Shown: positions 51,040 to 62,914 of the stretch, piece by piece | How positions within the stretch are numbered: position 1 is the stretch's first letter | How the letters are laid out: the number at the start of each line of letters is the position of its first letter | Source of the DNA: a bacterium | GTDB lineage: Bacteria; Patescibacteriota; Dojkabacteria; JAKAPS01; JAJZLI01 | Reading direction: 5' to 3' | NCBI GenBank assembly: GCA_021816845.1 | Contig: JAKAWT010000001.1 | Span: 134,087 to 198,086, forward strand | DNA: 64,000 nucleotides | Made by a program: the position numbers and the translations under genes | The notes under the pieces: generated by a model | Told to the model about the DNA's origin: nothing | The model's input: the letters and a program-made list of their open reading frames with translations, nothing else | Database searches by the model: none

Positions 51040-51942
51040 CTATCCTATAGTTTTTGTCAACATGGATATATTCAAAGTTTTTAGTTTTATATATATTCCT
51101 GTCCAAAATGTTAGAATAAAAACATTTAGGAAAGAATACAATAATGTCATAAGTATAAAATCCATAATAATCAGTATTATAAATATTGCTACACCAATAT
51201 GTGAATAATATAAAATTACAGAAATAGTCATATTGTTAATTGAATTTATTAAAACTATAAAAAATAATAAGTATATTAGGAATATACCAGTTATTTTCAA
51301 GAACATGCTTATATTGTTATAAACAATAACAAATGATCTTCTCATAGCATCTATAATATCCATATCTTGATCACATACAAAAATTACACCTATCATATTA
51401 ACTGATATAAGATATAAAAGAAAAATTGTAAGAATAACCAATGCAAGTAAAAATATTAATGATGCTATATACGGTATAAACGAAATTGCCACAACAATTA
51501 GTATGTATACTATAAATAGGAAAGTAGTGATAATATAAAAAACTATTTCATAAACAAAATATGATACTGCAACTCTCCTTCCATTTAGAATAAAAGATTT
51601 GATAGGATATATTTCTTGCCAATATTCTATATTGAGCATGCTTTTTACTATAGAAGCTTGTATAAAATAGAAAATCAAAGTTCCTAATATAATATATATA
51701 AGTACGATGAATGCTATTAATAACAAGACAAAAATATTAAAATGAGAGATTAAATTTAATATATATTTTGTATTATGATTTTTAAATACATAATTTGTAA
51801 GTAGAAAATATAAAATTGGAATAAGGGAAAATAAAACTAAAGATATAATAGAAAGATATAATAGATTAATATTTTTAAAAATGATAAAAATAGAATCTCT
51901 TATTTGTGTCAGAATGTCTGATATAGGAATATCTTTATTCAT
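51040..51942 (-). CDS. Polytopic membrane protein (about 7-8 TM) of unknown function.
   Basis: Hydropathy. Confidence 0.5.
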   Translation of the reverse strand: MNKDIPISDILTQIRDSIFIIFKNINLLYLSIISLVLFSLIPILYFLLTNYVFKNHNTKYILNLISHFNIFVLLLIAFIVLIYIILGTLIFYFIQASIVKSMLNIEYWQEIYPIKSFILNGRRVAVSYFVYEIVFYIITTFLFIVYILIVVAISFIPYIASLIFLLALVILTIFLLYLISVNMIGVIFVCDQDMDIIDAMRRSFVIVYNNISMFLKITGIFLIYLLFFIVLINSINNMTISVILYYSHIGVAIFIILIIMDFILMTLLYSFLNVFILTFWTGIYIKLKTLNISMLTKTIG

Positions 51943-51965: not shown

Positions 51966-53120
51966 ATGAATTATTTGACAATATATGATATAATTATTGA
52001 GCTTATGACAGAACCTCAGCCTACTCAAAAATCGATACAAAAATTGTTAAATATTGCTTTAGAAAAAGGATATTTATTAGAGTCAGATGTCCTAGGTGAA
52101 ATCCCATATATTGAAAATAATATTGATAATATCGATCTACTTTTTATTGAACTGGCAAAACAAAATTTGGAAATTATATATGAAGAAGATGACTATGAAG
52201 ATAAGTCAAAAAAACCTGCAGTAGTTAAAAAAGAAGACATAACTCTTGAGGATAAAATTAAGATATTAAAAACCATACAATCTAATATTGATTCAGATCC
52301 AATCAGAGCATATCTCCAGGAAATAGGTAAAATTCCTCTTCTAACAGGGAAAGAAGAAGTTACTCTCGCAAAAAGAATAAAAAGTGGAGATAAAGAAGCT
52401 ACAGAATATTTAACTACAGCAAATTTAAGATTAGTTGTATCAATTGCCAAAAAATATTATAAGGGTGGAAGTTTAAGTTTGCTTGACCTCATTCAAGAAG
52501 GAAACATAGGACTAATGAGAGCTGTGGATAAATTTGATTATACAAGAGGTTATAAATTTTCAACTTATGCTACTTGGTGGATAAGACAAGCAATAACAAG
52601 AGCAATTGCTGATCAAGAAAGAACAATTAGAATACCTGTACATATGATTGAAACTATACATCAACTTCAAAAAGTGAGAAGTACCCTCTCAATGAAACTA
52701 CAAAGATCACCTTCATCTCAAGAATTAGCAAAGGAGATGGGAAAAACTGTTGATCAAGTTGAAGAAATCATAAAGATATCCCAGTACCCTACTTCACTAT
52801 CAACACCAGTAGGAGACGATGGCTCTGGATCAAGCACAATAGCAGATTTTATTGCAGATGAAGATAACCCACAACCAGAGGCAGTAGCATCAAAAGATTT
52901 TTTGAAAAATCAGATCAGTGACGTTTTATCAGGTTTATCTGACAGAGAGAGAAAGGTTATTGAGTTGAGATTTGGTCTTCAAGATGGTGTAGCAAGGACG
53001 CTTGAGGAAGTTGGAAGAGAGTTTAAAGTAACAAGGGAAAGAATAAGACAGATTGAATCTAAAGCCTTAAAAAAATTAAATACTAAGGAAGTAAAACAAA
53101 TTCTCCAAGATTATATATAA
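51966..53120 (+). CDS. rpoD: RNA polymerase sigma-70 factor, primary-type (RpoD-like, with regions 1.1-4).
   Basis: Region 1.2 [17 protein letters not shown]. Region 2 [43 protein letters not shown]. Region 4.2 [21 protein letters not shown] more likely true start is Met at 52005 ([15 protein letters not shown]). Confidence 0.85.
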
Positions 53121-53198
53121 AAATCACCCTACACAATAATAAATACTGAAATTTGATAAATATGTAGTATAATTACAGGATATTTAGATTATTAAATT

Positions 53199-54074
53199 AT
53201 GGAAGCTTTAAAAACAGAATATTATAATTGCAATACTGAAGTTATTGTAGATCCTATGGTTGCATATCTGGAAGAAGTTCATACTATTCCATTACTTACA
53301 AGGGAGGATGAGGTGAGATTAGGGATAAGAATGGAAAAAGGAGATGCTAAAGCAGAAGAAGAATTAATAGTAGCTAATTTGAGATTAGTTATATATTATG
53401 CAAAAAAAGTATACCAACCAGGAGGCCTAGATCTACTTGATTTAATTCAAGAAGGAAATTTAGGCCTTATTAAAGCTGTAAAAAAGTTTGACTATACAAG
53501 AGGATATAAATTTTCAACTTACTCCACTTGGTGGATAAAGCATTTTATTGAAAGAGCAGAATCACAATCTAGAACTGTTACGATCCCTCACAATATTATC
53601 ATCTATAATAAAAGGATAAAAAGATTAAGAAATGATTTATCCCAAAACTTACAAAGAGAGCCTAAGCCAGAAGAGATAGCTGAAGAGATAGGTAAACCTT
53701 TACATGAAGTAGAAGATATTGTAATGATATCTAAAAACCCATTATCATTATCAACTACTATAAGGAATAGTGATGATTTAGAAGCTACAACTATAGCAGA
53801 GTTTATAACATCTAAAGATGATATACCTCCTGATGAAATAGCTGCACAAGATTTTCTAAAAGAGGAGATACAAAAATTATTAGCGAATTTATCAGACAGA
53901 GAAAGAAAAATAATAGAACTGAGGTTTGGCTTCAATGATGGAATTGTAAGAACATTAGAAGAGGTTGGGAAAAAGTTTGGACGGACCAAAGAGAGAATAA
54001 GGCAAATTGAATGCAAAGTGTTAAAAGGGTTACAAACTAAAGAAGTATTACAAATATTACATGATTACATTTGA
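53199..54074 (+). CDS. Sigma-70 family factor (group-2-like paralog without region 1.1).
   Basis: Regions 1.2 to 4 are present ([43 protein letters not shown]). Region 2.4 and 4.2 residues diverge from rpoD. Confidence 0.8.
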   Translation: MEALKTEYYNCNTEVIVDPMVAYLEEVHTIPLLTREDEVRLGIRMEKGDAKAEEELIVANLRLVIYYAKKVYQPGGLDLLDLIQEGNLGLIKAVKKFDYTRGYKFSTYSTWWIKHFIERAESQSRTVTIPHNIIIYNKRIKRLRNDLSQNLQREPKPEEIAEEIGKPLHEVEDIVMISKNPLSLSTTIRNSDDLEATTIAEFITSKDDIPPDEIAAQDFLKEEIQKLLANLSDRERKIIELRFGFNDGIVRTLEEVGKKFGRTKERIRQIECKVLKGLQTKEVLQILHDYI

Positions 54075-54126
54075 ATATTGATCAATACTATGAGATTAAA
54101 TATGATCAAAAATTTGTTTAAATATT

Positions 54127-55029
54127 ATGGAAGCCTTTAGAGAAGAGATAGGATACAATGAATTTGAAGATTATCTTGCTAATGAACCAGAATTAGATCC
54201 TGTAAAAATTTATCTACAAGAAATTAGTCAATTTCCACTACTAACTAAAGATGATGAAATAAGATTAGGCAAAAGAATAAAAAGTGATAATCCAGAAGAC
54301 GTTGATCTGGCTAAAAAATCCTTAGCAGAATCCAATTTAAGATTAGTTGTATCTATTGCAAAAAAATACCATACAGATAGTTTGGATATTCTCGATATAA
54401 TTCAGGAAGGGAATATGGGTTTAATCACTGCTGTAGAAAAATTTGATTATAGTCTTGGGTTTAAATTTTCAACTTACGCTACATGGTGGATTAAACAATC
54501 TATAACTAGAGCTATAGCAGATAAAGATAGAACAATAAGAATACCTTCTCATGGTATAGATAAAATCAATAAGATTAGAAAAGTTAGAAATATTTTAACT
54601 ACAGTATTAGGTAGACAACCTTTAGAGGCCGAGATAGGTGAAGAAACTGGTATATTAGAGAGTAAAATCAAAGAAATTTATACATCATCTAGGCGTACAA
54701 TATCTCTATCTACACCAATCGGAGAAGATATAGAGTCTGAAACATTAGGTGATTTTATAGCAGATGAAAAAACAGAACCACCTGATATTAGTGCTCTAAA
54801 ATTAATTTTAAAATCCGAGCTTTCTGATATGTTATCAGGATTATCAAAGAGAGAAATTCAAATATTAAACATGAGATTAGGCTTAAATGATGGATATGAG
54901 AAAACATTAACTGAGGTGGCCAATATATTTAACATTTCTAGAGAAAGAGTCAGAAATATTGAATCAAATGCTCTAAAGAGATTAAGAACTCCGCAATTAG
55001 AATCATTATTAAAATTAATGGTTCAATGA
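54127..55029 (+). CDS. Sigma-70 family factor (third tandem paralog).
   Basis: [42 protein letters not shown]. Region 4 [21 protein letters not shown]. Confidence 0.8.
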
Positions 55030-55131: not shown

Positions 55132-55767
55132 ATGGAACAATTATCTTTGTTTTTAATACAATCTGGTATTAGTCAAAACACGCTATATATACTATTAGCC
55201 ATACCTGTGGTAGCTCTATTTATAGTATTTATAAGACAAATCATAGGATTTGAAACATTTAATCTATATATCACCATACTCTCTATACTAGCTTTTTTCT
55301 CAACAGGTCTATTGTATGGTATATTTTTCGTTTTATACATACTGATTTTTGAAATTATATTAAAATATTTAATCAAGAATCTAACATTACATCATACAGC
55401 AAAAGAAGCTTTAACTATATCTTTTATATCATTTGCAATAATAGGGGCTTTATATAGTGTTCATGTAATATTTAATTATCATCATAGTATTTCAATATAT
55501 GCAATATTAATACTAATGTTACTTGGAGAATCTCTAGCCACAATGAAGATTAAAAAGGGAGAGAGACATGGTAACTATATATATATTCAAACCATAATTA
55601 TTGGACTTTTGATATATATGGCAGTTGGATCTTATGACTTTAGGACGACAATCATAAAATACCCAGTTTTATCACTTATTGCAATAATTTTTGATGTATA
55701 CGTTGGAAGAGTGACATCTTTAAGATTTACAGAACTGTTTAGATTTAGAAAATTAATCAAAGACTAA
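55132..55767 (+). CDS. Polytopic (about 6-7 TM) membrane protein. It resembles the 7TM modules found with RimK-related ATP-grasp ligases.
   Basis: Hydropathy. It lies immediately upstream of, and 1 nt apart from, the ATP-grasp::protease fusion. Confidence 0.45.
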   Translation: MEQLSLFLIQSGISQNTLYILLAIPVVALFIVFIRQIIGFETFNLYITILSILAFFSTGLLYGIFFVLYILIFEIILKYLIKNLTLHHTAKEALTISFISFAIIGALYSVHVIFNYHHSISIYAILILMLLGESLATMKIKKGERHGNYIYIQTIIIGLLIYMAVGSYDFRTTIIKYPVLSLIAIIFDVYVGRVTSLRFTELFRFRKLIKD

Positions 55768-55768
55768 T

Positions 55769-57154
55769 ATGATAGTTATATCAAAAGAAAAATCAAAAAA
55801 ACTTTTGGGTATGAATGCTAGAAATTTACTCTTTATTGACAAATCGGCTACAGCAATATCTAATTCAAAAATAAAATCAAAAAAAAGACTTAAGGATTTT
55901 AATATTCCTGTATCAAAAACTATTGCAACAATTAAAAATCTAGAAGAATTTGAAAATTTTGATTTTTCTAATCTACCTCTAAGTTTTGTACTAAAACCAA
56001 ATAAAGGGTTAGGAGGTGAAGGTATAATTATTGTATATGGGAAAAAGAAGAAAAAAAGTATTGATGAAGAAGACTCTTGGATAATGCCTAATAAAGAAGT
56101 TATAACCTTAACAAAGTTAAAAAGTCATATTTTAGATATTCTGAATGGGAATTTTTCTATAAATTCAGGTAATGACACTGCACTATTTGAAGAAAGAGTA
56201 AAAGTAATTCCTTTATTTTCAAAATTCACAAAACAAGGATTACCAGATATTAGAATTATAGTATACAGAAATATTCCGATAATGGCTGAATGTAGAATTC
56301 CAACAATAGAATCTAAAGGTAAGGCCAACCTTCACTCTGGAGGTGTTGGAGTTGGAATTGATATAGCAAATGGTGTAACTACAAATGCTATATTAAAAAA
56401 TTCTTCTATAGAAATTCATCCAGACACCGGAGAACGACTTAGTGGTATAAAAATACCTTACTGGAATAAGATATTAGAGATGTCTATACTATCATCCATA
56501 GCAATTAATGCAAAATTTATTGGAGTTGATATTGCTATAGATAAAAATAATGGACCATTAATCTTAGAAGTAAATGCTAGACCTGGATTAGCTATACAAA
56601 TTGCAAATAATGATGGGTTGAAAGAAAGACTTCTATCTGTCTCAAAAATAAAGACAAAAAACCCTCAATCTTCAATAAGAATTGCTAAAGAAATATTTGG
56701 AGGAGAAATAGAAGAAGAGGTCTCAGAAATTACAGGAAAGATAATAATAGGAAAAAAAGTGAAAGTATTAATAGGGAGTATGAGAACTCCCATAGAGGCA
56801 AAAATAGATAGTGGTGCATACCGTTCTTCAATATCTGAAGATATCGCAAAAGAAATAGGATACAATAATGTGTTAGAGAAATTTAATAAAATAGATATTC
56901 CTTCAAACTTGAATATAGGGAATATTAAAATTAAAGAAGAAGAACTTACAAAGCGTTATCATATAAAACTAAAATCAATTAGATCTGTAAATGGATTTTC
57001 AATAAGACCAGTAATAACTGCATCGCTAGAATTTTGTGACACAGATATAAATATAGAAACTGATTTTACAATTGCCCAAAGATCATATATGAGGTACCCT
57101 ATAATAATAGGGAGGAAAGATCTTTCAAATTTTTTATTAGATGTAACAAAGTAA
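55769..57154 (+). CDS. Alpha-L-glutamate-ligase-related ATP-grasp domain fused to a C-terminal retropepsin-like zinc-protease domain (DUF785/RimB-like).
   Basis: ATP-grasp motifs (FVLKPNKGLGGEGI, LEVNARPG). The C-terminal 140 aa carry GKKVKVLIGSMRTPIEAKIDSGAYRSSI, the aspartyl-protease-like DTGA-variant signature of the putative ATP-dependent zinc protease family. Confidence 0.6.
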   Translation: MIVISKEKSKKLLGMNARNLLFIDKSATAISNSKIKSKKRLKDFNIPVSKTIATIKNLEEFENFDFSNLPLSFVLKPNKGLGGEGIIIVYGKKKKKSIDEEDSWIMPNKEVITLTKLKSHILDILNGNFSINSGNDTALFEERVKVIPLFSKFTKQGLPDIRIIVYRNIPIMAECRIPTIESKGKANLHSGGVGVGIDIANGVTTNAILKNSSIEIHPDTGERLSGIKIPYWNKILEMSILSSIAINAKFIGVDIAIDKNNGPLILEVNARPGLAIQIANNDGLKERLLSVSKIKTKNPQSSIRIAKEIFGGEIEEEVSEITGKIIIGKKVKVLIGSMRTPIEAKIDSGAYRSSISEDIAKEIGYNNVLEKFNKIDIPSNLNIGNIKIKEEELTKRYHIKLKSIRSVNGFSIRPVITASLEFCDTDINIETDFTIAQRSYMRYPIIIGRKDLSNFLLDVTK

Positions 57155-57281
57155 TCATAGATAGATTAAAAACTGTTAAGATTGAGAATTAAATGGTGAG
57201 AGATTAGTTTAAGTTAGGTACTCTAGTCCCTTTGTATTATAATGAACATAGTATAAATTAACTTATAACAAAATATAATGC

Positions 57282-58193
57282 TTGTTTAATATATTAATTA
57301 TGAAAATTGCTATTTTATCAAGATCTAAAAGTATTGAAGTACTTTCTCTAAAAGAAGAGGGTGAAAAAGAAGGGCATTCTGTTGATATTATTGATCCCAA
57401 GAAATTAGTATTTACTATTTTTAAAAATACTTTTGAAATATATACAGATACTGGAGTTAATATACTATCCTATGATGCATATATACCAAGGTACTTTGGT
57501 ATTACAACTGGTAAATATAGAAAAAATTCTAAAGGATTAGTCGTTAGGTATTTAACTGATCACAATAAAATTGTACTTGATAGTATTGAAGGTAAAAGAT
57601 TTTCTCAAGAGGGTAAAATTTTCTCATTTTCTAAATATTTAGAATCAGGTTTGTCATTGATCCCAACTCTATACTTATATTCTCAAAATTTGGATAAATT
57701 GGATCAACTATTAAAAGAACATAACATCAGCTCTCCTTATATTTTAAAAGATATAAAAGGAGTTCAGGGGAAAAATATTTATAAAGTTAATTCCAAAGAT
57801 GAAATTACAAATATAATAAAAAAGAATGTCAATATTCATTTTATGATACAACCATTTATAGGAATAGAGCATGATTTAAGAATCCTTGTATTAGGGGATA
57901 AGATATTAGGTTGTATGGATAAAATACATAAAAATAATGATTTTAAAGGAAATATAGCACAAGGTGCGATCGGAGTGCCTTTCAATATAACGAATGATAT
58001 TATAAAAATATCAAATATTGCAAGATTCAGAAATGGTGCTGATTTTTGTGGTGTTGATATTGCAATTACAAAAGATACTACCTACCTCCTGGAAGTAAAT
58101 AGATCTCCACAATACAAAGGTTTTATGAACGCTACTGGGATTAATGTATCCAAAGAAATAATTAAATATTTGGAATATTTATACGTATTATGA
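57282..58193 (+). CDS. RimK-family ATP-grasp peptide ligase (paralog A).
   Basis: N-terminal pre-ATP-grasp IAILSRS, a central ATP-grasp region, and LEVNRSPQYKGF. Confidence 0.65.
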   Translation: MFNILIMKIAILSRSKSIEVLSLKEEGEKEGHSVDIIDPKKLVFTIFKNTFEIYTDTGVNILSYDAYIPRYFGITTGKYRKNSKGLVVRYLTDHNKIVLDSIEGKRFSQEGKIFSFSKYLESGLSLIPTLYLYSQNLDKLDQLLKEHNISSPYILKDIKGVQGKNIYKVNSKDEITNIIKKNVNIHFMIQPFIGIEHDLRILVLGDKILGCMDKIHKNNDFKGNIAQGAIGVPFNITNDIIKISNIARFRNGADFCGVDIAITKDTTYLLEVNRSPQYKGFMNATGINVSKEIIKYLEYLYVL

Positions 58194-59113
58194 GAATTTG
58201 TCTATTAACAAGATCCAACCGAGGAAATGATATTAATAACTTTTTTTATGTAAAAGCTCTAAAAAATGCTTCACTTAAAAGAGGACATACATTTGATATA
58301 ATTGATCCTGGTGATTTGATCTATTATATACAAGAAGATAATCTTTTAATAAAAACTGGAAGCAATAAAAATATATTAGATTTTGATGTTTATATACCAA
58401 AGGTAGTCTTAATAAAAGAAGGTGTCAAAAGAATATCTGATAGGGGAATTCTTGTAAAATATCTCATTGACCATAATAAAATATTTTTTAACTTCACTGA
58501 AAGTTTTAGAAGTTCATCACGAAGCAAGATGTATGACTTTTTCAGACTTGCTAGTAATAATGTACCACTTATTCCTAGCATATATATAGAAGATAACAAA
58601 GATCTTGAGAGTGTGGATAAATATATAAAAAAGTTCAATTTCTCGTATCCTTTAATTCTAAAATCAAATAAAGGATTACAAGGGAAAAATCTTTTTTATA
58701 CTACTACAAGGAAAGAAGTACACAATGTATTACAAAAATATAGAGACATATCATTTATTATACAACCATATTATGAAATCATGCATGATCTCAGAATCAT
58801 TGTACTTAAAGGTAAGATTCTTGGCACTATGGATAAAATACACAAAAAGGATGATTTCAGAGGAAATATCGCCCAAGGAGCAATTGGGGTACCATATGAT
58901 CTTGATAAGGCTGTACAAAATATCGCTCTTAATGCAGCACAAGTTGATGGATCTGAATTTGTAGGTGTTGATATTGCAATTACAAATAAAGGACCTTTTG
59001 TACTTGAGGTCAACAGAAACTTAGGGTTTCAAGGATTTTCCAAGTTTCTAAAAGTAGATACTGCAGGTATCATAGTAGAATATTTAGAATCACTTTATAA
59101 TCATGCATTATAA
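58190..59113 (+). CDS. RimK-family ATP-grasp peptide ligase (paralog B). Its start overlaps the stop of paralog A (ATGA).
   Basis: It has the same architecture as paralog A, including LEVNRNLGFQGF. Confidence 0.65.
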   Translation: MRICLLTRSNRGNDINNFFYVKALKNASLKRGHTFDIIDPGDLIYYIQEDNLLIKTGSNKNILDFDVYIPKVVLIKEGVKRISDRGILVKYLIDHNKIFFNFTESFRSSSRSKMYDFFRLASNNVPLIPSIYIEDNKDLESVDKYIKKFNFSYPLILKSNKGLQGKNLFYTTTRKEVHNVLQKYRDISFIIQPYYEIMHDLRIIVLKGKILGTMDKIHKKDDFRGNIAQGAIGVPYDLDKAVQNIALNAAQVDGSEFVGVDIAITNKGPFVLEVNRNLGFQGFSKFLKVDTAGIIVEYLESLYNHAL

Positions 59114-59178
59114 ATACTTATATTCTACAAAGCATATTAAGAATATAAATAATCTATTATTTACAAGATAGTGCATAT

Positions 59179-61984: not shown

Positions 61985-62914
61985 ATGAAAAATGTATCTG
62001 AACTGCTAAAAAATACAAGAAAACAATTAGGATTTTCACAAGATAAGGTATCTTTGGAAACAAAAATTAAAAAACCTTTGATACAAGCACTAGAGGAAGG
62101 CGATTTCAGCAAGTTTCCTTCAATATCAACAACTAAGGGGTTTATAAAAATATATGCAAAGTATTTAGGTCTAGATCCTAATAAAGTAGGACTCCTTTAC
62201 AAAAGAGAATCAAAGGAAGTGGAGTCCCACATGATGGTAAAAAAACAAAAAAAAGTAAAAGTGCCATTTATGTTCAATGGAAGAATTGCTTTTACGATAT
62301 TTTTTATTTCATTAATAGTCATTATAGTAGGAATATATGCTATTCATGAATACATCGTTTTTAAAACACCTCCTACACTGGATATAACAGTCCCAAAACA
62401 ATCTTCTATTACAACATACAATCCTAGTATCCAGATAATAGGGAAAACTAATGCCGGAAATAATGTACTAGTTGGAGGATACAAAGTAACTAATATCAAT
62501 CCTAATGGATCATTTGATATAACAGTTGGTTTACAGAATGGTTTAAATAAAATCAATGTGTCTGCTGTAAATACATTAGGAATAAAGAATACTGATGTAT
62601 TTAATGTAAGGTATATAAATTTAAAACTTCAGAAAATAGAGAATGCCTCTACTTTCAGTGTAACTATCTTGGATAAAAATTCTTCTACATTCATAAACGC
62701 AACCACTGGAAAAACAATCCTTTTTAATCATATATTAAAAATTGGGGATAAAGTCACTTTAAAAAGTGATTCCATTATCACACTAAATATTGGAAATATA
62801 CAGAATATAAGTATTTTATATAATAATAAACCAGTACCTTTGAGTGGATATGGATTTGTTATACTAATTCTTAAGTACCAGAATAGTAAGTTAACTATTT
62901 CAAAAGTAAGCTAA
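61985..62914 (+). CDS. rodZ: RodZ-like bitopic protein: an N-terminal XRE-type HTH, a single TM and an extracytoplasmic C-terminal domain.
   Basis: The HTH region LGFSQDKVSLETKI..IQALEEGDFSKFPS...GFIKIYAKYLGLD resembles RodZ. TM near residues 100-120. Confidence 0.5.
   Translation: MKNVSELLKNTRKQLGFSQDKVSLETKIKKPLIQALEEGDFSKFPSISTTKGFIKIYAKYLGLDPNKVGLLYKRESKEVESHMMVKKQKKVKVPFMFNGRIAFTIFFISLIVIIVGIYAIHEYIVFKTPPTLDITVPKQSSITTYNPSIQIIGKTNAGNNVLVGGYKVTNINPNGSFDITVGLQNGLNKINVSAVNTLGIKNTDVFNVRYINLKLQKIENASTFSVTILDKNSSTFINATTGKTILFNHILKIGDKVTLKSDSIITLNIGNIQNISILYNNKPVPLSGYGFVILILKYQNSKLTISKVS

Follow-up and report, generated by a model that had tools for sequence, protein, structure and literature searches.

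What does a group of four closely packed genes do for a Patescibacterial cell when one of its products joins a peptide ligase to a protease? The genes occupy positions 55,132 to 59,113 of the stretch of DNA that we analysed, 64,000 nucleotides of contig JAKAWT010000001.1 from a Dojkabacteria genome, referred to here as the window. In order, they encode a membrane protein with seven transmembrane (TM) helices (the 7TM protein), a fusion of an ATP-grasp ligase with a retropepsin-like protease, and two further ATP-grasp ligases of the RimK family, RK1 and RK2. An initial annotation of the window had read them as a module that might ligate and trim a peptide tag or a poly-amino-acid. We found the four co-directional open reading frames (ORFs) to be real and on the + strand, and searches with profile hidden Markov models (HMMs) upheld the ATP-grasp, DUF785 (PF05618) and PF14402 domains that it had named. 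Its gaps of 1 nt and -4 nt also held, but that of 127 nt, in front of RK1, did not. Tight spacing is weak evidence for a module, because about 12 neighbouring genes in a row are equally co-directional and packed; the GC content of the module genes is 27-29%. The evidence beyond chance is conservation across genomes. Judged by sequence, the module is a Patescibacterial variant of the rloABC system.

A two-gene core related to rloABC

In Pseudomonas aeruginosa, RloA is a secreted retropepsin-like protease, RloC is a cytoplasmic ATP-grasp protein, and RloB is an inner-membrane protein that combines an inactive transglutaminase domain with seven TM helices (Lormand et al., mBio 2025, PMC12239564). 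Triple loss of RloA1-3 leads to hypo-osmotic and beta-lactam sensitivity and to biofilm and cell-shape defects, and deletion of rloB or rloC suppresses these phenotypes (PMC12239564), from which it follows that RloA, RloB and RloC act in one pathway. RloA cleaves chains of at least 8 Glu, and experiments showed that its residues K46, R114 and R137 contact the Glu side chains (PMC12239564). RloB was reported to be 96% proteobacterial, and the Rlo proteases were seen as secreted enzymes (PMC12239564). As a canonical split operon for comparison, we used that of a Legionella adelaidensis plasmid (L088; loci compared with the window are cited by such numbers). In this operon the annotated start of rloA lies apparently too far downstream, and the in-frame upstream sequence MRLVLFFIFSWTFLCGST (L088, 1927-1980) looks like a signal peptide.

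The fusion gene of the window (55769-57154, +) encodes 461 aa; its ATP-grasp domain spans aa 5-296, and a PF05618 domain covers aa 327-455. The N-terminal domain is, like RloC, a cytoplasmic ATP-grasp domain of the TIGR02291/PF14397 type. It scored 207 bits against PF14397 (ATPgrasp_ST; cut-off 31.4) and 246 bits against TIGR02291, which is under the equivalog cut-off of 314, compared with 33 bits against TIGR00768. The whole of the standalone Legionella RloC aligned with aa 12-310 of the fusion (36% identity, 5e-62), and the C-terminal residue of Legionella RloC stands opposite F310. Conservation of the ATP-grasp residues K76, D254, E267, N269 and R271 is complete or nearly complete among 119 full-length homologues. 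A fold search placed the ATP-grasp domain closest to ArgX/LysX, RimK and cyanophycin synthetase; the search was run with the whole fusion, and the ATP-grasp matches swamped the protease domain. The AlphaFold2 (AF2) model of the fusion (predicted local distance difference test, pLDDT, 87; predicted template modelling score, pTM, 0.72) shows an ATP-grasp fold, two linker helices and an all-beta C-terminal protease domain at 325-457 with a pLDDT of ~90.

The C-terminal domain had been called a zinc protease. That term is a historical name for PF05618, and the family is aspartic and retropepsin-like (PMC12239564, PMC11957791). The fused domain is accordingly not a zinc protease: it has the single D-S/T-G-A motif (here AKIDSGA) and the beta-rich fold of about 130 aa of a clan AA retropepsin. 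It scored 31.9 bits against PF05618 (cut-off 27), and its best NCBIfam matches were RloA3, RloA2 and RimB, yet far under their cut-offs (23-37 bits for the RloA models, against 210-280). Residues D347, G349, A350, R413 and R438 are invariant in the 119 homologues, position 348 is T or S, and position 345 is K in 107 and R in 12. K345 aligns with K46 of RloA and R438 with R137, and the spacing of 66 from D347 to R413 is that from D48 to R114 in RloA. Over aa 324-455 the fusion aligned, at 25% identity, with Legionella RloA from just past the signal peptide of the latter. A sequence search of the PDB with the protease domain gave a best E of 0.02, for chains 9g59 and 9g58, whose deposition title reads 'putative ATP-dependent zinc protease domain'. 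RloA is secreted, with a signal peptide and a disulfide pair. Here the corresponding domain follows the ligase in one polypeptide and lacks a signal peptide; in 92 of the 119 homologues it contains no Cys, and thus not the RloA disulfide pair. Because signal peptide and disulfide cysteines are both missing, we predict that the domain is cytoplasmic; it would act as a dimer.

The two domains are joined by a linker of 13 residues, located where RloA has its signal peptide. The junction consensus, F-G-G-E-[IV]-E-E-E-[ILV]-E-[ED]-I-S-G-[KR], is near-invariant across the 119 sequences and conserved to the same degree as the active sites. With hydrophobic residues at 314, 318 and 321, the linker follows the pattern of an amphipathic acidic helix, and AF2 models a helix at 313-322; it is probably a helix of this kind. 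It may equally well serve for docking or as a pseudo-substrate.

The product of the first gene belongs to the RloB 7TM family, and an unrelated transporter family, which would have cut the proposed membrane link, did not emerge. The protein scored 63.7 bits against PF14402 (7TM_transglut; cut-off 25). Of the RloB model NF052267 it covers positions 310-508 only (55 bits against a cut-off of 900), and it aligned with residues 309-505 of Legionella RloB at 25% identity. RloB consists of a periplasmic inactive transglutaminase domain and seven TM helices; in the window the 7TM half alone is present. The same 7TM-only form was found in 81 of 83 orthologues (202-257 aa). For a deeper set of 7TM homologues, a word-indexed search gave 5, then 8 proteins, and an exhaustive profile search was used instead. 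An N-terminal PKD domain is present on 2 of the 83 (L015, 1494-3047; L046, 7419-8999), where it replaces the transglutaminase-like domain of RloB. From hydropathy and the positive-inside rule, applied to all 83 orthologues, we predict seven TM helices with the N-terminus outside and the C-terminus inside. This N-out topology agrees with RloB because the N-terminal domain of RloB is periplasmic. The strongly conserved polar motifs (R-Q-x2-G-I-K-A-F-G-I-Y-T-P, R..R-x-L-Y-L-P-R and E-K-F..Q-I-E-K-G, together with E-T and G-K-x2-G-L-R-x2-E-x2-R-F) all fall on cytoplasmic loops or the C-terminal tail in this topology, and are thus predicted to face the same side as the soluble enzyme. AF2 modelled the protein with a pLDDT of 87.8 and a pTM of 0.81, and a search of solved structures in the PDB returned no significant or convincing relative.

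Relatives of the fusion were found in at least 428 species-representative genomes. The best 120 homologues are 457-493 aa long, bar two that are truncated, and where named they are assigned to Patescibacteria, Moranbacteria or Parcubacteria. In all 83 non-redundant loci the gene directly upstream of the fusion is the 7TM gene, at a median distance of 12 nt, an adjacency that matches the single operon of rloABC. ATP-grasp units stand immediately behind the fusion in 62 of the 70 loci that have at least 4 kb of downstream sequence (median gap 7 nt). What had been proposed as a four-gene module therefore recurs as a 7TM-fusion pair, mostly followed by an ATP-grasp gene, and not with two RimK paralogues as a fixed part. 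We conclude that the core consists of the 7TM protein and the fusion, and that the additional ligases are accessory, common yet variable. Many species-representative metagenome-assembled genomes titled 'uncultured Bdellovibrionales', 'Micavibrio' or 'Bathyarchaeia' (among them L013, L018, L019, L014 and L062) encode fusions about 45-47% identical to that of the window, a similarity like that of Moraniibacteriota genomes, and these titles are probably wrong. An RloC-like ORF with 34.6% identity over 92% of the query was also seen in a haloarchaeon, where no gene is annotated (L089, 4001-4894; Halobacterium sp. DL1 plasmid CP007061, 106116-107009).

Compared with rloABC, the window has the same three families in one operon, at identities of 36% for RloC and 25% each for RloA and the 7-TM part of RloB, and it conserves the DTG/DSG-A motif along with the K and R residues that contact poly-Glu in RloA. 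It differs in gene order, which is B-(C::A) instead of A-B-C; in the protease, which sits on the C-terminus of the ligase and has lost signal peptide and disulfide cysteines; in an RloB without the periplasmic transglutaminase domain; in its additional RimK-family genes; and in its host, one of the Patescibacteria. The Rim system offers a second comparison. RimB is a cytoplasmic protease that cleaves chains of at least 5-6 Glu and trims the poly-Glu tails that RimK makes on ribosomal protein S6; it also stimulates poly-Glu synthesis by RimK and physically interacts with it (PMC4741518, PMC7343187, PMC11957791). A hybrid of the two, RimBK, has the protease N-terminal and the RimK-type ligase C-terminal, and is known from Desulfotalea psychrophila DP2392 (Desulfobacterota), Flavobacteriales and Rhodobacterales (PMC11957791). 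With RimK-RimB, the window shares the pairing of a cytoplasmic ATP-grasp ligase with a retropepsin-like protease predicted to be cytoplasmic, and its downstream genes are of the RimK family. The fused ligase, however, is of the RloC type, as the TIGR02291 and TIGR00768 scores show, a 7TM partner is present, and no RimA gene was found in or adjoining the module. With RimBK, it shares a poly-Glu-type retropepsin-like protease and an ATP-grasp ligase on one polypeptide, but the window fusion lacks the N-terminal RimB domain and C-terminal RimK-type ligase that define the hybrid: its order runs from ligase to protease, the ligase is RloC-type, the acidic linker is conserved, and the 7TM partner is always there. 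Because domain order, ligase type, linker and 7TM pairing all differ, the window fusion is evidently independent of RimBK.

The initial annotation had considered the module more elaborate than RimK-protease pairs. Although it does contain more parts, a named relative, rloABC, and a RimB-RimK hybrid were already described. Rlo, Rim and RimBK are thus known as a kind of system, and the window proteins already stand in public databases under generic names. Relative to all three, what differs is an RloC-type ligase N-terminal to the protease, the invariant acidic linker, an RloB without transglutaminase domain, a protease predicted to be cytoplasmic, and exchangeable ATP-grasp cassettes in Patescibacteria. 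Full-text literature searches for the fused Patescibacterial arrangement returned nothing relevant. Iyer, Abhiman, Burroughs and Aravind reportedly defined the ATPgrasp_ST and 7TM_transglut families in Mol Biosyst in 2009, and are said to have described there DUF785-type proteases and DUF1704 (now MATCAP) peptidases, together with ATP-grasp ligases, as peptide-ligation systems.

Exchange of the downstream ligase genes

RK1 most likely starts at ATG 57300 (MKIAILSRS) and not at TTG 57282, a choice with which the gene call of the source assembly agrees. With this start, the gap between fusion and RK1 is 145 nt, not 127 nt. The start of RK2 overlaps the stop of RK1 by 4 nt, and the two proteins are 42% identical. 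Their assignment to the RimK family was borne out by PF08443 (103 bits for RK1, 108 for RK2), while TIGR00768 scored them at 128 and 130 bits, just below its cut-off of 143. The Rimk_N model passed for RK1 only (40.9 bits). RK1 (E=5e-19 to 5zct/4iwx) and RK2 (E=6e-20) both aligned end-to-end with E. coli RimK. The two proteins are of full length for a RimK-type ligase, pre-ATP-grasp N-domain included, and keep GVD...LEVN, with its D...E-x-N metal/ATP residues; the 'NLHRGG' loop of RimK reads 'NIAQGA' in the window genes. NCBIfam matches of the RimK-like genes include MptN, CofF and LysX.

The two paralogues had been counted as part of the module; comparison with two sister species (L090, L092) shows that they are no fixed part of it. 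Their fusion proteins are 89-90% identical to that of the window, and their gene order is three sigma genes, 7TM, fusion, RimK-like, small membrane protein, MetRS, TatD and RodZ-like. The RimK-like gene is single, encodes 277 aa and overlaps the stop codon of the fusion. Its product is only ~30% identical to RK1 or RK2 and 54% identical to its counterpart in L009, a locus with a fusion of 57% identity, and on account of the 54% figure it looks vertically inherited. By blastn, similarity between the window and L092 (86% identity) runs up to 57169 and resumes at 59168, with flanks about 84-86% identical to the sister genomes, and there is no nucleotide similarity between the 2.0-kb segment thus delimited and the 0.79-kb single-gene segment of the sisters. 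The ligase cassette has therefore been replaced, and the new genes sit in exactly the same slot. In the next clade, with fusions ~60% identical, there is mostly no RimK gene behind the fusion. A first metagenome scan for a donor of RK1 and RK2 found nothing, and a second found only relatives at 29% identity or less; among 80 species loci the closest match was ~32% identical, and no source was found.

Across the loci, the number of ATP-grasp units downstream of the fusion varies from 0 to 5 (1-5 where present). The units fall into three supergroups: X, the RimK-proper type of ~300 aa to which RK1 and RK2 belong; Y, of ~318 aa and YheCD/TTL-like; and Z, of ~328 aa. Combinations and orders of these units vary widely, and for this reason we rejected a fixed order of paralogues of the kind expected from an ordered assembly line. 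Some arrays contain composite proteins. In eight loci a RimK-like ATP-grasp protein inside the array carries a C-terminal DUF3541 (PF12060) domain of ~300 aa (L018, 10393-12171; L021, 11341-13128; L084, 4189-5994; and five other loci), and tandem two-unit ATP-grasp proteins of ~635-646 aa are found at L019 (10395-12296), L060 (10399-12339) and L067 (10398-12305). Just after the array, 9 loci have a MATCAP/DUF1704 (PF08014) metallocarboxypeptidase (for example L057, 14294-15718). The MATCAP family includes a eukaryotic tubulin detyrosinase, and its position here fits peptide-tag chemistry. In 57 loci, without exception Moranbacteria-type (L003-L086; for example L058, 12337-14943), the gene directly after the array encodes a class A penicillin-binding protein (PBP; Transgly + Transpeptidase), and in loci of this type the 7TM gene is directly preceded by RuvC and YebC. 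The order RuvC, 7TM, fusion, array and PBP1a is widespread across the 80 loci, and may reflect either inherited synteny or a link to the cell wall. The coordinates of the window features are collected in Table 1.

Table 1. Features of the module and its downstream flank, in window positions.
Feature	Position	Strand	Basis
RloB-like membrane protein, 7-TM domain only, 211 aa	55132..55767	+	PF14402, RloB model, AF2
RloC-type ATP-grasp ligase domain of the fusion, aa 1-310	55769..56698	+	PF14397, TIGR02291, Legionella RloC
Junction linker GGEIEEEVSEITG, aa 311-323	56699..56737	+	119-sequence consensus, AF2, split Legionella RloC/RloA
RloA/RimB-type retropepsin-like aspartic peptidase domain of the fusion, aa 324-461 + stop	56738..57154	+	PF05618, residues
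Codon of predicted catalytic Asp347	56807-56809	+	
AT-rich spacer, 145 nt, fusion gene to RK1	57155..57299	+	Sequence, blastn breakpoint
RimK-family ATP-grasp ligase 1 (RK1), 297 aa, supergroup X	57300..58193	+	PF08443, TIGR00768, RimK
RimK-family ATP-grasp ligase 2 (RK2), 307 aa, supergroup X	58190..59113	+	PF08443, TIGR00768, RimK
Replaced cassette, ~2.0 kb, RK1 + RK2	57170..59167	+	blastn vs L092 and L090
Small polytopic membrane protein, 123 aa	59179..59550	+	Clade synteny

A model for the module and its alternatives

Domain identities, residue retention, the fusion junction, predicted localisation, gene linkage and cassette replacement come directly from the comparisons above. On product chemistry, acceptor, physiology and the part played by the 7TM protein we infer a model, to which we give a probability of about 0.55: next to the cytoplasmic side of the 7TM protein, the fusion would build and trim Glu-rich chains, with a contribution from the RimK ligases, and the output would concern the envelope or osmotic balance. 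The 7-TM RloB-type protein would pair with the cytoplasmic bifunctional enzyme. In the latter, the RloC-type ATP-grasp domain would use ATP to make alpha-linked, Glu-rich (poly-acidic) peptide chains, either free or on an acceptor carboxylate, for which the conserved cytoplasmic face of the 7TM partner is one candidate. The C-terminal retropepsin domain, as a dimer, would cut these chains like the homologous RimB and RloA. Downstream RimK-family ligases would extend or diversify the same chains, as an exchangeable accessory cassette outside the invariant core. The physiological output would probably be homeostasis of the envelope or of osmotic balance, in line with Rlo in Pseudomonas. Ligation and trimming of a peptide tag or a poly-amino-acid, as first suggested for these genes, agrees with the cleavage of poly-Glu by RimB and RloA in the homologous Rim and Rlo systems.

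Several observations speak for this model. The three core parts are homologous to those of the canonical split rloA-rloB-rloC operon, and the putative poly-Glu-binding residues (K345, D347, R413 and R438) and the ATP-grasp residues are kept. The conserved motifs of the 7TM protein are predicted to lie on the side of the enzyme. Linkage is strong, with the 7TM gene upstream at 83/83 loci, ATP-grasp genes behind the fusion at 62/70, a sister RimK gene that overlaps the stop codon of the fusion, and a replacement cassette in the unchanged slot. Other observations weigh against it. Poly-Glu as the product is extrapolated from RimK and from the specificity of the proteases. The protease domain is distant from characterised enzymes, to judge from its 25% identity to Legionella RloA and its best E of 0.02 in the PDB. 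Because the protease is extracytoplasmic in Pseudomonas and predicted to be cytoplasmic here, the Rlo and window systems may work differently. The core does not need RimK genes, given that the ~60%-identity clade is mostly without them, and the linkage may partly be inherited synteny, because gene order is conserved within a single radiation. Finally, the 64-kb window contains no gene (rpsF) for S6, the RimK acceptor with its C-terminal Glu-Glu, and none of its ORFs encodes an acidic tail or at least 5 acidic residues in a row.

Of the alternatives, the one that fares best holds that the 7TM protein and the fusion are self-sufficient and that the RimK pair is an unrelated insertion doing classical RimK work, on S6 or a cofactor. 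The pair does lie in a 2-kb segment with sharp breakpoints that the sister genomes lack, a RimK gene is missing behind the fusion in most of the closest clade, at ~60% identity, and roles within the RimK family are diverse, as the matches to MptN, CofF and LysX illustrate. The 145-nt spacer in front of RK1 could also hold a promoter of its own; a promoter scan was uninformative in this AT-rich DNA (40 sites vs 38 expected). However, a scan for + strand terminators found none between fusion and RK1, and an ATP-grasp gene occupies this exact slot at most loci, at a median distance of 7 nt. The sister RimK gene even overlaps the stop codon of the fusion. Position and orientation were kept through the replacement, which suggests selection for linkage. 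In addition, a RimB-type protease is the usual partner of RimK, and here the fusion supplies the only domain of that type. We consider independent functions unlikely, though a serious alternative.

In a more speculative version of the preferred model, to which we give less credence still, the pair of 7TM protein and fusion would act as a minimal membrane-gated synthase/depolymerase for acidic chains, with a regulatory linker and with cassettes that diversify the peptide. The linker would then be a pseudo-substrate of the protease, or a helix that docks onto the basic cytoplasmic side of the 7TM protein. If this were true, the module would represent an unrecognised ribosome-independent peptide-polymer system of Patescibacteria, serving as an osmotic buffer or as a variable component of the envelope.

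We also considered a ribosome-independent assembly line that makes a defined hetero-peptide for the wall or envelope, with the 7TM protein as flippase or anchor. Several features of the comparison loci point in this direction: the class A PBP directly behind the array in 57 of them, FemAB-like and Mur-ligase-like ORFs nearby in some (the latter called by reading the sequence, with no HMM), and the variable mixing of three supergroups, as would be expected for lineage-specific peptides. Fold matches include D-Ala-D-Ala ligases and cyanophycin synthetase, and Rlo mutants have beta-lactam, cell-shape and osmotic phenotypes. But the PBP synteny is found in one lineage only, and the window has MetRS, TatD and RodZ-like genes in its place. 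The protease retains the residues that bind poly-Glu, the 7TM fold has no similarity to known flippases, and the window has only two such ligases, both of the same subtype. Taken together, we regard an assembly line as improbable.

We hold it to be just as doubtful that the fusion is a self-processing polyprotein, in which the retropepsin domain would cut the Glu-rich linker and free an RloC-like and an RloA-like protein, much as retroviral proteases cleave the junction at their own N-terminus. In favour of such processing, the linker is conserved like the catalytic motifs and directly precedes a protease with homologues that cut Glu-rich sequences. Yet 109 of 119 linkers have no more than 3 contiguous Glu, whereas the minimum is 5-6 for RimB and 8 for RloA, and hydrophobic spacing and the AF2 model both indicate an amphipathic helix instead of an extended cleavage site. 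Since the Glu runs are this short and the linker is modelled as a helix, self-cleavage is unlikely; moreover, selection for fusion is hard to explain if cleavage were the aim. As a separate candidate, a defence system was rejected, as PADLOC gave no match for any of five proteins.

The model in which the fusion builds and trims chains beside its 7TM partner bears on the Rlo system itself. RloB and RloC matter in Pseudomonas for antibiotic tolerance, biofilm formation and osmotic survival. The Patescibacterial form is a system cut down to two proteins, with ligase and protease coupled and both predicted on the cytoplasmic side, and the fusion argues that ligase, protease and 7TM protein are one machine. 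Its occurrence in at least 428 species-representative genomes means that the RloB 7TM domain is not essentially proteobacterial. For reconstitution it offers a simpler construct, comprising one soluble bifunctional enzyme and one membrane protein of 211 aa. Two puzzles are raised by the module, the conserved linker and the turnover of the cassette. The cassette-like turnover of ligases suggests diversifying or rapidly changing selection on the product as a whole or on part of it, which would be unusual for a housekeeping modification.

Neighbouring genes

Upstream of the module, at 51966-55029 (+), three RpoD-like sigma-70 genes stand in tandem, with products of 384, 291 and 300 aa. All three contain regions 1.2, 2, 3 and 4. 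Identity is 52-54% between the 384-aa protein and either shorter one, and 43% between the two shorter ones. That they might regulate the module or be functionally tied to it had been raised because of their position, and adjacency on the same strand does hold in the window and in the two sister species; we nevertheless think such a link very improbable, as adjacency carries little weight in a compact co-directional genome, a single sigma gene lies upstream in the ~60%-identity clade, Moranbacteria-type loci have RuvC/YebC and no sigma gene there, and sigma adjacency is thus confined to a genus-level clade. Further upstream, a very hydrophobic polytopic ORF of 300 aa (51040-51942, -) is found at the same position in the sister species, and had no Pfam or NCBIfam match.

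Immediately downstream of the cassette, the 123-aa polytopic membrane protein gave no family assignment above cut-off in Pfam or NCBIfam. Its homologues, confined to this clade, always come directly after the fusion or the RimK gene (L001, L007-L011, L090 and L092); the protein is a possible accessory peculiar to the clade. Beyond it, the window continues with MetRS, TatD and, three genes downstream of the module, a RodZ-like gene (61985-62914, +; HTH_25 + RodZ_C). In L090 and L092, the RodZ-like gene is followed by a PilM/FtsA-like gene.

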